DNA of 64,000 bases. Source: an uncultured SAR86 cluster bacterium (GTDB lineage Bacteria > Pseudomonadota > Gammaproteobacteria > Magnimaribacterales > D2472). The notes under the pieces were generated by a model, which saw only the letters and a list, made by a program, of their open reading frames with translations, did no database searches and had not been told where the DNA came from. A program made the translations under genes and the position numbers. The stretch is from positions 9,919-73,918 of the forward strand of contig CACJCN010000006.1 of NCBI GenBank assembly GCA_902591925.1, in the 5' to 3' direction. Positions within the stretch are counted from its first letter, which is position 1. Every line of letters starts with the position of its first letter. This document shows, one piece after another, positions 8,086 through 12,990 of this stretch.

Positions 8086-9933
8086 CTAATTGTTATCAAT
8101 TGCAGATAAAGACGCTAATGCAACTCCAAGATTACCTAAAATAGATACATATGCTTGAGTTGCAAGCCTTCTTGATGCAGAGTTATCAATTTTTCTAGGT
8201 ACAAAAATTACTGATCCTGGATACATTTTGAGATCTCGAGGCTGATTTGCAAATAAGTTTCTTTGTTTTGAATATCTCTGTGTTTCACCGTTTGGATGAA
8301 GTATATAAATAGATTCCTTGTCAGCTAATCTCTTATAACCACCAGATTTTTCTACAAAATAATCAACACCTCTATTTGATGAAAAAGATACCGCACCCTC
8401 TGAAGAAACTTCTCCGTATACAAAAACACTATTTGTTTTTTCTGGAACAATTAAGGAATCTCCTTCACGTATATTTATAAAATTCTCACTTTCTTCACTC
8501 AATAAATCTATAACAATTCTGCCACTAGGAGAAGAATTTTTTATTTCCTCAGTTAATCTTACAATCGGCATTAAATCAGCATTCTGTCCAATGTTTAATT
8601 GACTAATAAGAATAATGTTATCGAGGAACTCCTCGTATAATAATTCTTGAGCTTTTTCATTAATTAATTTTGCATCATTATTTTCATAAACAGCCCCAAA
8701 AGGATAGGCATTTTCAGTAAATCCTCCAGCTTTTTTAACTAAATCTTCAATTGTTTCTCCTGCAGCCATTATATATTTACCTGGTTTATAAACAGCACCT
8801 GTAATTGAAGCAGTTCTGTATGAAAATTCTCTAATATAAATTAAATCTCCATCAATGGGTTTGATAGATTCAAACTGAGAAACATTTGTTATAGGTATTG
8901 ATCTAAGACTACCATCTAATATCCTTTCTAATGAAATGTTTTGAAGATCTGCTGTTTGTTTGATTCCATTTGAATATTTTACAATACTATCTAAAAATTG
9001 ATCTTCAGAAATTTCGTACTTTGCTGGTCTTTTAACTGCGCCATTGATTGTGATAACTCCTTTTCTGGCTTCAACAAAGACAACATCACCGGAACGAAGG
9101 CGTTTTTTTAATGAGTAATTTCCATCAATAAGTATGTCATACACATCCAAGGTATCAACTATCTTACCATTTCTTAGTAAATTTATTTCTCTGTAAGATC
9201 CAAATTCATTTACACCTCCAGCAGCATTCAAAGCATGTAATATGTTTGAGTTTCCAGTGAGAGTATAAACACCAGGATTTTCTGCATTACCGGATACTAA
9301 GATATTAACATCTCTTATTTTATCTAAGCTGATGTATGAATCAGTTTGAATGTATACAGAGTCAACAAAAGATTTCACAAGCGTGGAAGCTTCATCTAGA
9401 GTTAATCCAGCTAATGTTATTTTTCCAATATCTGGGATATTTATAGATCCATCTCCTTTGATAGTAAAAGTATCAAATAAATCTGATTCACCAATGAGTT
9501 GTATTCTTAAAATATCTCCGATATCCAGTGTGTAAGATGAATCAGGATTAGGCTCGTTTATTGGCATAAATGAAGTTTGAAATGTTTTGAAGAAGTCAGA
9601 TCCAAACAATTTAAGATCCTCAGAAATTTCGAGATTTTCGCTAGAATTAAGTCTTCTTTCAAGCTCCCTTAGATCATTCTCAAGTCTTGTCTTTAACTTA
9701 ATGAGTTCCTCTTGTTGCTCAAATTTGCTTGAGTAAAGTGTAGACCGATAATTGTTTTTAAGATCATCTATATTTTCATCTGCTCTATCCATTAGGTCAT
9801 CCTTTATATCCTCTGGAAGGCTATCTAGATATGATTCATCTAATTCTTGAGCATAAACAAAACTCAATGAAAACAAGAATATAAATGGTAAAAATTTTAA
9901 ACTATTCATAAATTTCTCTGGATTGAATAACAA
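8086..9933 (-). CDS. Polysaccharide export protein with multiple SLBB domains (KpsD/OtnA-like OPX)
   Basis: LFGSDFF, YTLDIGD Poly_export domain, repeated V.G.V..PG.Y SLBB units and a C-terminal amphipathic helix; no lipobox seen; true start may be MNSLKF (9909). Confidence 0.85.
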   Translation of the reverse strand: MLFNPEKFMNSLKFLPFIFLFSLSFVYAQELDESYLDSLPEDIKDDLMDRADENIDDLKNNYRSTLYSSKFEQQEELIKLKTRLENDLRELERRLNSSENLEISEDLKLFGSDFFKTFQTSFMPINEPNPDSSYTLDIGDILRIQLIGESDLFDTFTIKGDGSINIPDIGKITLAGLTLDEASTLVKSFVDSVYIQTDSYISLDKIRDVNILVSGNAENPGVYTLTGNSNILHALNAAGGVNEFGSYREINLLRNGKIVDTLDVYDILIDGNYSLKKRLRSGDVVFVEARKGVITINGAVKRPAKYEISEDQFLDSIVKYSNGIKQTADLQNISLERILDGSLRSIPITNVSQFESIKPIDGDLIYIREFSYRTASITGAVYKPGKYIMAAGETIEDLVKKAGGFTENAYPFGAVYENNDAKLINEKAQELLYEEFLDNIILISQLNIGQNADLMPIVRLTEEIKNSSPSGRIVIDLLSEESENFINIREGDSLIVPEKTNSVFVYGEVSSEGAVSFSSNRGVDYFVEKSGGYKRLADKESIYILHPNGETQRYSKQRNLFANQPRDLKMYPGSVIFVPRKIDNSASRRLATQAYVSILGNLGVALASLSAIDNN

Positions 9934-10001
9934 TTATATATAAACTAGCTGGATTATATATAATTTTGTAAATCATTACATTTTTTAAAATAAAGAGTAT
10001 T

Positions 10002-11909
10002 TTAAATTTCTAGGCCGGGAATAGTTACAGAGTCAATTGATAAAGCTTTCTTAATAATCTCATCCATTACTTCATTTACGTCTTCATCTTTTATAGTATT
10101 GAATTTGGATTGAAAAATAAATCTTATTCCAACTTTGATTTCTTTTGCAATATCATTTTTGTAATAATCAAATATAAATACTTCTTTAAGCAAATCATTT
10201 TCAAAAGATAAAATTGCCTTTTCTAATATTTTGCAATTTGAAAATTTTTTTATTGAAAAAGATAAATCTCTTGTGGAACAAGGGAAATCTGATATTTGAA
10301 TATACTTCTTACTATTAATATCAAAACAAACAGGATAGTCATCAGCATATTTAGTTTTTAAGGATGAGTCTAATTCTATTTCAAGATAAAATATTTTATT
10401 TTTTGATTTTGAGTTAATTTTTTCCCTAGATATTTCAACTATTTCAACATCTTTGCCAAGATTTTCATAATTTAAAAAATTACTAAGATACTCTAGATCA
10501 ATTTTTTTATTAAATTCTTTGTAATTCTTTCCAATTCTCCCGCTTGCAATTATTCCAATAACTCTTTTTTGTAAATCAGAATTTTTAACGTAAATGTCTG
10601 CTATCTCAAATAGCTTGATTATATCTTTTTGCCTATTTTCATTATAGATAAGATCATCTATGAGAGAGTCAAGAAGATCAGTTCTTAAGAAGTTTTTATT
10701 TTTATCCAGAGGATTATCAATGACAAATGAATTCTTGTTTTTTTTTGATGAAAAGGGATTATTTATGACTTCATAAAAACCCTTATCTATTAGTAATTTT
10801 TTTAATTTATTTTCATTGTTATGATTATGTCCTTTTGTATCAATACTAATCTTAAAGTTTTTTGTATTTATGTTGTCATAGCCTATAGCTCTAGCAATTT
10901 CCTCAGATAGATCATTTATATTTGATATATCATTTCTATAAGAAGGAACTAAAACAGAATTATCTTTAAATATGAAACCTAGTTTTCTGAGATATTCTTT
11001 ACATTTGATATCATCTAAATTCACTCCAAGGATACTTTTGATTTTTTCTATGTCGAAAAAAATCTTTTTAGAATTATGAGTTTTTGATTCTGAAAATAAC
11101 TCAACATTAATTATTTTTGTATGATTTTCAACAATATTTAAAAATCTTCTTAAAACATAATCGTGATTATTTTTGTCGGTATTTCTCTCAAATTTATAGG
11201 CAGCATCTGAAGTAATATTGTATTTTATTGGCCTTCCGAGTATTGCTTCAGGTTCAAAATATGCGCATTCTAAGAGAACATGTTTTGTTTTTTTGTTACA
11301 AGATGTATTCTTTCCACCAACAATTCCAGCAAAATTAATAACCTCCATATTATTATCTAAAAATACTAATTCATTTTCATCAATACAAATTTTACTACCC
11401 AACAAGGTTTCAAATTCTACTTTCTTGCTTAAAAAGTCTAGTGTTATAGGATCTTTTATTTTTAGAAAATCATAACAATGAGTTGGTTGACCTGTTTCAT
11501 AAGAAATAAAATTTGAAATATCTGTAAAAAAATTGATTTTTTTAAGATTTAAATCAATGAAGTAACTTTTTAAATCACCTTTATAATTTGAAGGGATATC
11601 TTCAATCTCTAATTTTAAAAAAGAAATATTACTACAAACTTTTTTTGCATTGTTATTGAAGGATAAAGAATAAGTCCTGATTTCCGGTTCATATATATCT
11701 TTATTGATATCAATTTCGTAAAACAATCTTAAATCTCTTAACAATCCATCAAGAGAGATACAATCTCCTCTGTTAGGCGTAAGTTCAAAGTTAAAAATTT
11801 CATCAGATATTTCATGTTCATGACCAAGTTGGAAAAATCTTTCTGACAATTCATTTATACTTGGTTTTGATTGAATATTTTCAACAAAATGTTTATGTGG
11901 AATCTTCAT
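10002..11909 (-). CDS. pheT: Phenylalanine-tRNA ligase beta subunit (short, 635 aa)
   Basis: TPNRGDC, GQPTH, LECAYF, VPSYRND..DL.EEIAR and C-terminal RDLSF anticodon-binding domain; follows pheS. Confidence 0.93.
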   Translation of the reverse strand: MKIPHKHFVENIQSKPSINELSERFFQLGHEHEISDEIFNFELTPNRGDCISLDGLLRDLRLFYEIDINKDIYEPEIRTYSLSFNNNAKKVCSNISFLKLEIEDIPSNYKGDLKSYFIDLNLKKINFFTDISNFISYETGQPTHCYDFLKIKDPITLDFLSKKVEFETLLGSKICIDENELVFLDNNMEVINFAGIVGGKNTSCNKKTKHVLLECAYFEPEAILGRPIKYNITSDAAYKFERNTDKNNHDYVLRRFLNIVENHTKIINVELFSESKTHNSKKIFFDIEKIKSILGVNLDDIKCKEYLRKLGFIFKDNSVLVPSYRNDISNINDLSEEIARAIGYDNINTKNFKISIDTKGHNHNNENKLKKLLIDKGFYEVINNPFSSKKNKNSFVIDNPLDKNKNFLRTDLLDSLIDDLIYNENRQKDIIKLFEIADIYVKNSDLQKRVIGIIASGRIGKNYKEFNKKIDLEYLSNFLNYENLGKDVEIVEISREKINSKSKNKIFYLEIELDSSLKTKYADDYPVCFDINSKKYIQISDFPCSTRDLSFSIKKFSNCKILEKAILSFENDLLKEVFIFDYYKNDIAKEIKVGIRFIFQSKFNTIKDEDVNEVMDEIIKKALSIDSVTIPGLEI

Positions 11910-12631
11910 TTAAATTGATTCAAAAAGTCTAGATTAGATTTGTAAAAATCTCGGATATCATTTACTCCATATTTAAGCATCGCAATTCTCTCAATTCCTA
12001 ATCCAAATGCAAGCCCAGAAAAATTATTTGAATCAATATTGCAATTCTCTAAAACAGTTGGATTTACGATTCCGCATCCCAATATTTCAAGCCACTTACC
12101 CTCTTTAGACATAATATCAACCTCAGCAGAAGGCTCTGTAAACGGAAAATAAGATGGCCTAAATCTAATCTTAGTTTCTGAACCAAATAAAGCCTGAATA
12201 ATGTCAAAAATTAAGTGTTTAAGATTTGAAAAACTAACATTTTCATCTACATAAATACCTTCAACTTGATGAAACATAGGAAGATGAGTCGCATCATCAT
12301 CTTTTCTATAGACTTTTCCACCAGAAATAAATGCTAAAGGAGGTTTTCTTTTTAACATACCTCTTATTTGAACAGGTGAAGTATGAGTTCTTAGAACATT
12401 GGTCTTATTACTGATATAAAATGTATCATGCATTTGTCGAGCAGGATGAGATTTTTTAATATTTAACATATCAAAATTATATTCTTCTGTTTCAATCTCA
12501 GGCCCACTAATTATTTCAAAGCCAAATGATTGCAAAAGATCCATAATAGAATCTTTAACTTGATTAATTGGATGATATGAACCTTTTTCTTCTATAAGTC
12601 TTGGAGCACTATGATCTATGGAATCTGGCAT
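11906..12631 (-). CDS. pheS: Phenylalanine-tRNA ligase alpha subunit (short, 241 aa)
   Basis: HPARQMHDTF, LRTHTSPVQ, FRPSYFPFTEPS, EILGCG and FGLGIERIAML motifs. Confidence 0.95.
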   Translation of the reverse strand: MPDSIDHSAPRLIEEKGSYHPINQVKDSIMDLLQSFGFEIISGPEIETEEYNFDMLNIKKSHPARQMHDTFYISNKTNVLRTHTSPVQIRGMLKRKPPLAFISGGKVYRKDDDATHLPMFHQVEGIYVDENVSFSNLKHLIFDIIQALFGSETKIRFRPSYFPFTEPSAEVDIMSKEGKWLEILGCGIVNPTVLENCNIDSNNFSGLAFGLGIERIAMLKYGVNDIRDFYKSNLDFLNQFK

Positions 12632-12642
12632 AATACCAGCGG

Positions 12643-12990
12643 CTAACTTGTTGCTATTTTAACAACCTTTCTAAAAGTTGAGTTGTCTGAAATAGCTAGG
12701 TCAGAGAGAATTTTTCTATCAATAATAATATTCTTTTTATTCATTGAGTCAACAAGTTTTGAATATGATACGCCGGCTTCCCTAGAGCCAGCATTAATTC
12801 TAGATATCCATAATGATCTAAAAGACCTTTTTCTATTTTTTCTATCTCTGAATGCGTACTGAAGTGATTTAATTTGAGATTGTTTTGCAGTTTTAAAAAG
12901 TCTGCTTCTGGCTCCATAATGACCTTTTGTAGATTTTAAAACCTTTTGATGTTTCGCTTTAGCTGTGACAGATTTTGTTACTCTAGGCAT
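12643..12990 (-). CDS. rplT: 50S ribosomal protein L20
   Basis: MPRV..., RSFRSLWISRINA, IDRKILSDLA. Confidence 0.97.
   Translation of the reverse strand: MPRVTKSVTAKAKHQKVLKSTKGHYGARSRLFKTAKQSQIKSLQYAFRDRKNRKRSFRSLWISRINAGSREAGVSYSKLVDSMNKKNIIIDRKILSDLAISDNSTFRKVVKIATS

Follow-up and report, generated by a model that had tools for sequence, protein, structure and literature searches.

A phenylalanyl-tRNA synthetase without the B2 domain and the alpha coiled coil in an uncultured SAR86 bacterium

Phenylalanyl-tRNA synthetase (PheRS) of bacteria is known from solved (alpha-beta)2 structures of E. coli (3PCO), T. thermophilus (1PYS/2IY5) and M. tuberculosis (7K98). In the solved complex, the coiled coil of the alpha subunit contacts the elbow of the tRNA (D/T loop) at G19, U20, C56 and G57, and tRNA binding is 'mostly' through this coiled coil and the C-terminal domain of the beta subunit (PMC8136816). 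The B2 domain, an oligonucleotide-binding fold (OB-fold) inside the B1 domain of the beta subunit, is missing in many beta subunits of the Candidate Phyla Radiation (CPR) (PMC5370408). The title of Roy and Ibba 2006, cited in that paper, calls B2 dispensable and states that it contributes to editing of non-cognate aminoacyl-tRNA. This study concerns the genes for both PheRS subunits, pheS and pheT, in 64,000 nucleotides of contig CACJCN010000006.1 from an uncultured SAR86 cluster bacterium (assembly GCA_902591925.1), hereafter the window. SAR86 comprises four families with genomes of 1.05–1.66 Mb and a GC content of 31–40%, and its Suzuki/D2472 family is grouped with CHAB-I-7/TMED112 (PMC11582366). 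The genomes that we compared within the order (0.9–1.8 Mb) also fall into four families, here f1 to f4, and the window belongs to genus g1 of f1. Its genome assembly is 1.2 Mb in 14 contigs, 93% complete, with 32.0% GC. The two genes very probably encode the only PheRS of the cell, a functional, domain-reduced alpha/beta enzyme of the bacterial type whose history includes two domain losses and an exchange between families.

The gene for the beta subunit, pheT (10002–11909, minus strand), encodes 635 amino acids plus a stop codon. A Pfam search of the protein identified B3_4 (aa 118–263), B5 (aa 283–344), the catalytic-like module (CLM, aa 359–479) and FDX-ACB (aa 540–622), and produced no match to tRNA_bind (PF01588), the family of the B2 OB-fold. 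A preliminary description, made from the letters of the sequence alone, had proposed that B2 was missing since only about 40 residues precede FELTPNRGDC in a protein of 635 aa. Both figures are correct, with exactly 40 residues before F41-E-L-T-P-N-R-G-D-C, and the absence of B2 is borne out by alignment and by structure prediction. In the match to E. coli PheT (3pco_B), residue 34 falls opposite residue 153. When the window PheT was aligned with three full-length gammaproteobacterial PheTs of 791–794 aa, the B2 columns contained 110 residues in the latter and none in the window PheT, in which the two halves of B1 were fused directly. The junction, at which about 110 aa of B2 are absent, lies between aa 33 and 34 (11808–11813, minus strand).

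An AlphaFold2 model of PheT built on 41 sequences had a mean predicted local distance difference test (pLDDT) score of 88.7. The model matched the T. thermophilus PheRS beta chain (1pys_B, 785 aa) with a Z score of 39.2 over 607 aligned residues and the chains of E. coli, P. aeruginosa, A. baumannii and M. tuberculosis with Z scores of 38–39, whereas eukaryotic and archaeal beta chains reached only 14–15. The B1 region was modeled confidently and continuously, with a strand at aa 2–4, helices at aa 5–9 and 18–27, a hairpin at aa 32–41 and a helix at aa 53–60. B1 (~aa 1–75; 11685–11909, minus strand) is thus unbroken in the model, and the β-hairpin (strands 32–35 and 38–41; pLDDT ~95 for aa 1–40) occupies the usual insertion site of B2.

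The remaining PheT domains follow on the minus strand in the usual order: the B3/B4 editing domain (~aa 80–278; 11076–11672; PF03483, E 2.6e-36), B5 (aa 283–344; 10878–11063; PF03484), the catalytic-like module B6/B7 (~aa 355–535; 10305–10847; PF17759, positions 15–150 of 214) and B8, the ferredoxin-fold anticodon-binding domain (aa 540–635; 10005–10292; PF03147). The preliminary description had listed the editing motifs, B5 and B8 as retained and B7 as apparently shortened, and we found the same. CLM plus linker comprises 195 aa in the window compared with 226–227 aa in the full-length proteins and 217–226 aa in other B2-less forms. The C-terminal third of the module is divergent and about 30 aa short, and pLDDT is low at aa 520–535.

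Apart from the B2 OB-fold inside B1, which is absent, the protein has the composition of a bacterial PheT, namely B5, a partial CLM and a C-terminal FDX-ACB domain on a fold closest to 1pys_B. The best matches among solved structures are all bacterial PheRS beta chains, and the named best sequence matches, among the matches listed, are from Gammaproteobacteria. PheT differs from the archaeal/eukaryotic beta subunit in having B8, in producing no match to TIGR00471 and in its fold match (Z ~15 vs 39). The mitochondrial type of single-chain PheRS does not apply either, as there are two genes and the TIGR00469 score of 135.1 is below the cut-off of 258.35. The short form is not peculiar to this genome. 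A matching pheT gene was present in 37/41 related genomes, and a PheT of 633–645 aa is common to hundreds of marine relatives. A locus search with this single protein against a set of genome contigs gave no relative. All 120 listed cluster representatives, which come from marine metagenomes and several of them from Tara surface water, are 632–644 aa long with the same four Pfam domains.

The alpha subunit is reduced as well, a feature that the preliminary description overlooked. pheS (11906–12631, minus strand) encodes 241 aa comprising the class II catalytic core only. PF01409 covers aa 5–240 (E 4e-99), and motifs 1–3 are invariant in the alignment. The TIGR00468 score of 315.3 passes the cut-off of 237.45, with the model matched from position 65 on. 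In the window PheS, about 16 residues precede the conserved G..HP motif, about 85–100 residues are missing in comparison with its relatives, and in the AlphaFold2 model (pLDDT 77.5) aa 1–17 are disordered. The N-terminal coiled coil (PF02912), which is present in relatives from f2, f3 and part of f1, had no match in PheS nor anywhere in the window genome at E ≤ 10. Since the coiled coil is absent from the window PheS, one of the two main tRNA-binding elements of the enzyme is gone.

Loss of the coiled coil is rarer than loss of B2. PF02912 was found in 15/15 f2 genomes, 15/15 f3 genomes, 0/15 f4 genomes and 4/15 f1 genomes. Within f1 it was confined to genera g275 and g277 and was not found in g1, g272, g273, g274 and g276, which are 5/7 of the sampled f1 genera. 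The loss is therefore not family-wide in f1. To place both subunits in the class we used a sample of 300 gammaproteobacterial genomes, four of them unpublished (G077, G154, G298, G308); none of our specific statements depends on these four by themselves. The 150 PheS matches listed for this sample were all at least 326 aa long except those of the window genome and one f4 genome. Five listed genomes with a B2-less PheT (G151, G186, G198, G291, G306) have a full-length PheS. PheS was also compared against 1.84 billion representative sequences, and the best 150 were examined. Almost all were 320–360 aa long, with the match starting near residue 85–110. A few representatives (P0290, 249 aa; P0156, 269 aa) are possible short forms. 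In a literature search of incomplete coverage we found no paper on a natural bacterial PheRS without the coiled coil or on this feature in SAR86.

The f1 genera were divided by PF02912, after the PheT identities had been seen, into those without the coiled coil (f1-short) and g275 plus g277 (f1-long). PheT identity to the window was 44–52% for f1-short genera other than g1 (45–58% within g1), 41–45% for f4, 29–32% for f1-long and 29–33% for f2/f3. For the PheS core, identities were 73–84% for f1-short, 72–74% for f4, 56–57% for f1-long, 52–59% for f2/f3 and 55–58% for the outgroups. For RpoB they were 81–95% for f1-short, 79–80% for f1-long, 64–66% for f2/f3 and 63–65% for f4. Those for methionyl-tRNA synthetase (MetRS) were 62–83% for f1-short, 50–54% for f1-long, 48–52% for f2/f3 and 44–50% for f4 (full-length matches).

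Trees were built with IQ-TREE using the quick search, and groupings were compared by approximately unbiased (AU) tests. The PheT tree has the form (f1-long,(f1-short + f4)), in which the inner clade has a support of 100 and a stem of 1.7–2.3 changes/site. Grouping f1-short with f1-long was rejected (log-likelihood difference 148, AU p 2.6e-63). With three f4 sequences included, f4 (support 98) and f1-short (support 88) are each monophyletic. The PheS core tree also unites f1-short and f4 (support 99, stem 0.87), and the taxonomic grouping was rejected with an AU p of 0.011. The same two groups share the derived PheT sequence QLGHEHE, where other PheTs have GLEV(D/E)S. The MetRS tree unites f1 (support 92), and the alternative of f1-short with f4 had an AU p of 0.053. 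Because MetRS gave only this value, RpoB was added as a control. The RpoB tree unites all f1 with a support of 100 and rejects f1-short + f4 (log-likelihood difference 69, AU p 1e-7); it pairs f2 with f3, leaving f1 and f4 on the other side. The conflict between the gene trees, like the domain content and its distribution, is a direct observation. Since the PheT and PheS trees unite f1-short and f4 while RpoB rejects that grouping, a single origin of the trimmed pheST pair, with its fast-diverged PheT, is probable, followed by horizontal exchange between the f4 stem and the f1-short stem, in either direction, in which it displaced the resident pheST.

Loss of B2 is more widespread. The B2-less PheT occurs in every family of the order, with lengths of 633–647 aa for the window's type, 644–645 aa in f4, 664–678 aa in f2/f3 and 666–671 aa in two further f1 genera. 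Of the PheT frames listed for the class sample, nearly all are 784–854 aa long. A clean B2-less PheT of 656–683 aa, confirmed by Pfam, occurs in about 10 additional genomes, which represent about 9 families. The 671-aa open frame of G187 was rejected as such a form, as it is a cut B2-containing gene. Among 80 named records, 5 also lack B2: an uncultured gammaproteobacterium, a proteobacterium, an uncultured bacterium, an Omnitrophota metagenome-assembled genome (MAG) and a Planctomycetia MAG. In a FastTree analysis of 95 PheT sequences with B2 masked, in which deep nodes are poorly resolved, the B2-less state requires 9 changes by parsimony, and at least 3 are forced by well-supported branches. 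A smaller tree under a site-heterogeneous model recovered the PheTs of the order as monophyletic (support 99), which is compatible with one loss of B2 no later than the order's origin. Elsewhere in the data, the B2-less PheTs of the Omnitrophota MAG, the Planctomycetia MAG and an unclassified MAG (L058, L068, L115) form one clade (support 97), which suggests shared ancestry of their B2 loss or another transfer.

B2 loss is thus ordinary, being recurrent in bacteria and partly covered in the literature. The preliminary description had itself named, among the outcomes that would refute it, a loss general in the wider group and already described. This is largely the situation, as the loss is order-wide, extends to other families and phyla and is reported for CPR (PMC5370408); B2 itself is nonetheless absent as stated. 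Its interpretation as domain-level streamlining is sound in so far as B2 was lost as a domain in a 1.2-Mb genome of 32% GC. B2-less genomes reach 2.8 Mb, however, and an endosymbiont of the sample with a genome of 0.3 Mb has retained a PheT of 784 aa; a small genome is therefore neither necessary nor sufficient for the loss. That interpretation was reasonable and is partly supported, and it overstates the rarity of B2 loss. Two genomes of the order carry in-frame stops in these genes. The same-genus genome G002 has a TAG inside pheT (C1 714421–716325), and the f3 genome G029 has a TGA in pheS (C1 577762–578478) and a pheT match split in two (575789–577768). Sequencing errors, decay of the genes or recoding could each account for these observations.

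The preliminary description also foresaw possible effects on editing, and this is plausible for B2 loss given the title of Roy and Ibba 2006. The pocket itself is conserved. Domain-length comparison places B3/B4 at its full length of 174 aa. The motifs GQPTH (aa 140–144) and LLECA (aa 211–216), together with TSDAA, align to E. coli H265, E334 and T354/A356. Using the residue list of PMC8136816, the pocket positions P142, H144 (E. coli H265), L169, G195, E214 (E334), S234 and A236 (T354, A356) are invariant or nearly so in the 41 PheT sequences, across which the interface residues are also invariant. As far as sequence conservation can tell, nothing indicates that editing has been lost.

The genes are arranged in the order rplT-pheS-pheT, the operon position of a bacterial pheT, and the window genome contains one PheT match and one PheS match. 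The pheS stop and the pheT start overlap as ATGA (11906–11909, minus strand), which would permit translational coupling. Upstream of the pheS ATG lie a spacer of 11 nt and, before it, the TAG stop of rplT (12632–12645, minus strand), and in relatives the open frames upstream of pheS are only 0–13 codons. With the rplT stop just 11 nt away, PheS cannot start any further upstream, and a pheM-type leader would not fit. Phenylalanine-dependent attenuation of pheST is presumably absent, as there is no space for a pheM-type leader peptide or an attenuator. Downstream of pheT, a very AT-rich gap of 68 nt (9934–10001) is followed by a polysaccharide-export gene (8086–9933).

The genome encodes a single tRNA-Phe(GAA) with a canonical D-loop, variable loop and A73, features in which we take it to be close to E. 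coli tRNA-Phe. The only PF01588 match in the window genome is the C-terminus of MetRS, and nothing in this genome appears to replace B2 in trans. With regard to MetRS itself, the C-terminal tRNA_bind OB-fold is fused in f1 (frames of ~650–680 aa; in the window genome G000, locus L001, contig C2 48013–49776). In f2, f3 and most f4 genomes it is a separate open reading frame (ORF) of ~111–120 aa directly downstream of metG, and in several f4 genomes a single in-frame stop alone separates it from the MetRS core. This arrangement looks like a fission/fusion polymorphism within one order.

For the activity, quaternary structure and kinetic consequences of the reduced enzyme we infer the following. 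The enzyme would work with what it has kept, which is the class II core of alpha with motifs 1–3 and, in beta, B1, B3/B4, B5, CLM (the alpha/beta interface) and B8, and would do without the accessory RNA-binding OB-fold B2 and the N-terminal coiled coil of alpha. With no clamp on the elbow, the main hold on tRNA-Phe would come from B8, which would grip the anticodon, and from the catalytic and editing sites, which would engage the acceptor end. Charging would be expected to work with a weaker affinity for tRNA, and hydrolysis of Tyr-tRNA(Phe) would be expected to be kept, perhaps at lower efficiency. As to history, B2 would already have been gone by the time the order, probably SAR86/Magnimaribacterales, arose. 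The coiled coil would then have been lost once, during a burst of change that affected alpha and beta alike, and the co-adapted pheST pair would later have been swapped horizontally between f4 and the larger part of f1. A more far-reaching idea, which we put forward only tentatively and consider improbable, is that the trimmed pair recognizes tRNA-Phe unlike every solved bacterial PheRS, at the anticodon and acceptor end only and perhaps with a different stoichiometry. The burst would then be compensatory co-adaptation, and the pair would have become good or cheap enough to replace a resident enzyme.

Horizontal exchange would be unnecessary if short pheST had descended vertically, with f4 a fast offshoot inside f1, or if independent losses had been drawn together by long-branch attraction. 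We consider this unlikely. It gains from MetRS, which does not clearly reject f1-short + f4 (p 0.053), from the smallest genomes and long branches of f4, and from the rapid clock in one SAR86 family (PMC11582366). It conflicts with the RpoB tree, which unites f1 with a support of 100 and rejects the alternative at p 1e-7. Moreover, f1-short identity to f4 is 13–17 points above that to f1-long, in PheT and PheS alike, and QLGHEHE is a shared derived sequence; given this higher raw identity and shared sequence, long-branch attraction alone is insufficient. A truncated or mis-assembled pheT or pheS in a MAG hardly deserves consideration. The draft does consist of 14 contigs and NCBI names some relatives 'hypothetical protein', but the same architecture recurs in independent assemblies including closed single-contig genomes, the frames are intact with their ATGA overlap, and the catalytic motifs are invariant.

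Two further explanations accept the reduced pair and differ about its consequences. Loss of B2, and of the coiled coil, may have crippled proofreading in a cell that tolerates Tyr-for-Phe mistranslation. The unusually long PheT stem branch would agree with such relaxed fidelity, as would the contribution of B2 to editing named in the title of Roy and Ibba 2006 (cited in PMC5370408). Erosion of the pocket would then be expected, yet B3/B4 is full length and P142, H144, L169, G195, E214 and A216 are invariant or nearly so, and we regard this explanation as quite improbable. Less probable by far is that the missing functions are provided in trans, either by an independent tRNA-binding protein, OB-fold or helical, that docks onto the enzyme or by a second PheRS of a different type that does the work. 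Stand-alone tRNA_bind ORFs do adjoin metG in f2, f3 and most f4 genomes, and the genome is 93% complete. These free ORFs are, however, the detached C-terminus of MetRS, and in the window genome the sole PF01588 match is fused to MetRS, there is no PF02912 match, and PheS and PheT each have a single match.

Several points weigh against our interpretation of a functional, domain-reduced enzyme that was exchanged between families. The case for transfer hangs on one strong control gene (RpoB) together with family and genus taxonomy, with MetRS only leaning the same way (p 0.053), and it is weakened by quick tree searches and long branches. The PheT score against the NCBIfam equivalog TIGR00472, 358.1 bits, is below the cut-off of 402.65, a shortfall that results from the missing and shortened domains. 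Deletion of the coiled coil, in work by Lechler and Kreutzer from 1997, reportedly inactivated T. thermophilus PheRS for aminoacylation; if that result holds, the window enzyme needs some compensation. Neither the net charge nor the Lys+Arg content of PheT rises consistently in a way that would point to such compensation for the lost RNA-binding elements. Finally, in a genome that is 93% complete, a second PheRS or a detached domain could, strictly speaking, lie on unassembled DNA.

Loss of B2 by itself adds little, being recurrent and concerning a domain already called dispensable. More useful is that B2 and the alpha coiled coil are missing together, a state that is fixed in free-living marine bacteria of high abundance and that has probably moved between families as one unit. 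As a natural experiment, the doubly reduced pair bears on what share of the large bacterial PheRS tRNA binding and proofreading require, and the compact enzyme can be compared directly with that of sister lineages still carrying the coiled coil. There is also a practical side. Some NCBI records name PheT relatives 'hypothetical protein' (for example P0003 and P0033), probably because of a TIGR00472 score below the cut-off. With such scores and labels, the essential pheT may be mis-scored as missing by annotation and marker-completeness pipelines.

Among enzymes known to lack B2, a natural counterpart is the PheRS beta subunit of CPR/Patescibacteria (PMC5370408), where B2 is likewise absent in small-genome bacteria. 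Those belong to a different phylum, whereas the window organism is an abundant free-living marine gammaproteobacterium that has kept B3/B4. The same domain was removed in the engineered E. coli PheRS of Roy and Ibba 2006, known to us through its citation in PMC5370408, which reportedly remained usable; the window form occurs naturally, is fixed throughout an order and accompanies loss of the coiled coil. Mitochondrial PheRS (human FARS2, 3CMQ/3TUP) also works without coiled coil and B2, relying on FDX-ACB and the catalytic core, but it consists of one chain and has no editing domain, whereas the window enzyme has two subunits and B3/B4. The archaeal/eukaryotic cytosolic beta subunit (3L4G_B, 2CXI) is likewise without B2; it also lacks B8, is paired with an alpha subunit of different N-terminus and matches the fold of the window PheT only at Z 14–15. 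The canonical (alpha-beta)2 enzyme shares with the window the adjacent genes and their ATGA overlap, the class II core of alpha, B1, B3/B4, B5, CLM and B8, and the fold (Z 38–39 over ~600 residues). Compared with it, the window enzyme is without B2 (110 aa) and the alpha coiled coil (~85 aa), has a CLM about 30 aa shorter and falls below the TIGR00472 cut-off. The reduced pair is a variant of this known enzyme and not a new kind, and its noteworthy feature is the double reduction together with the co-evolution of the two subunits.

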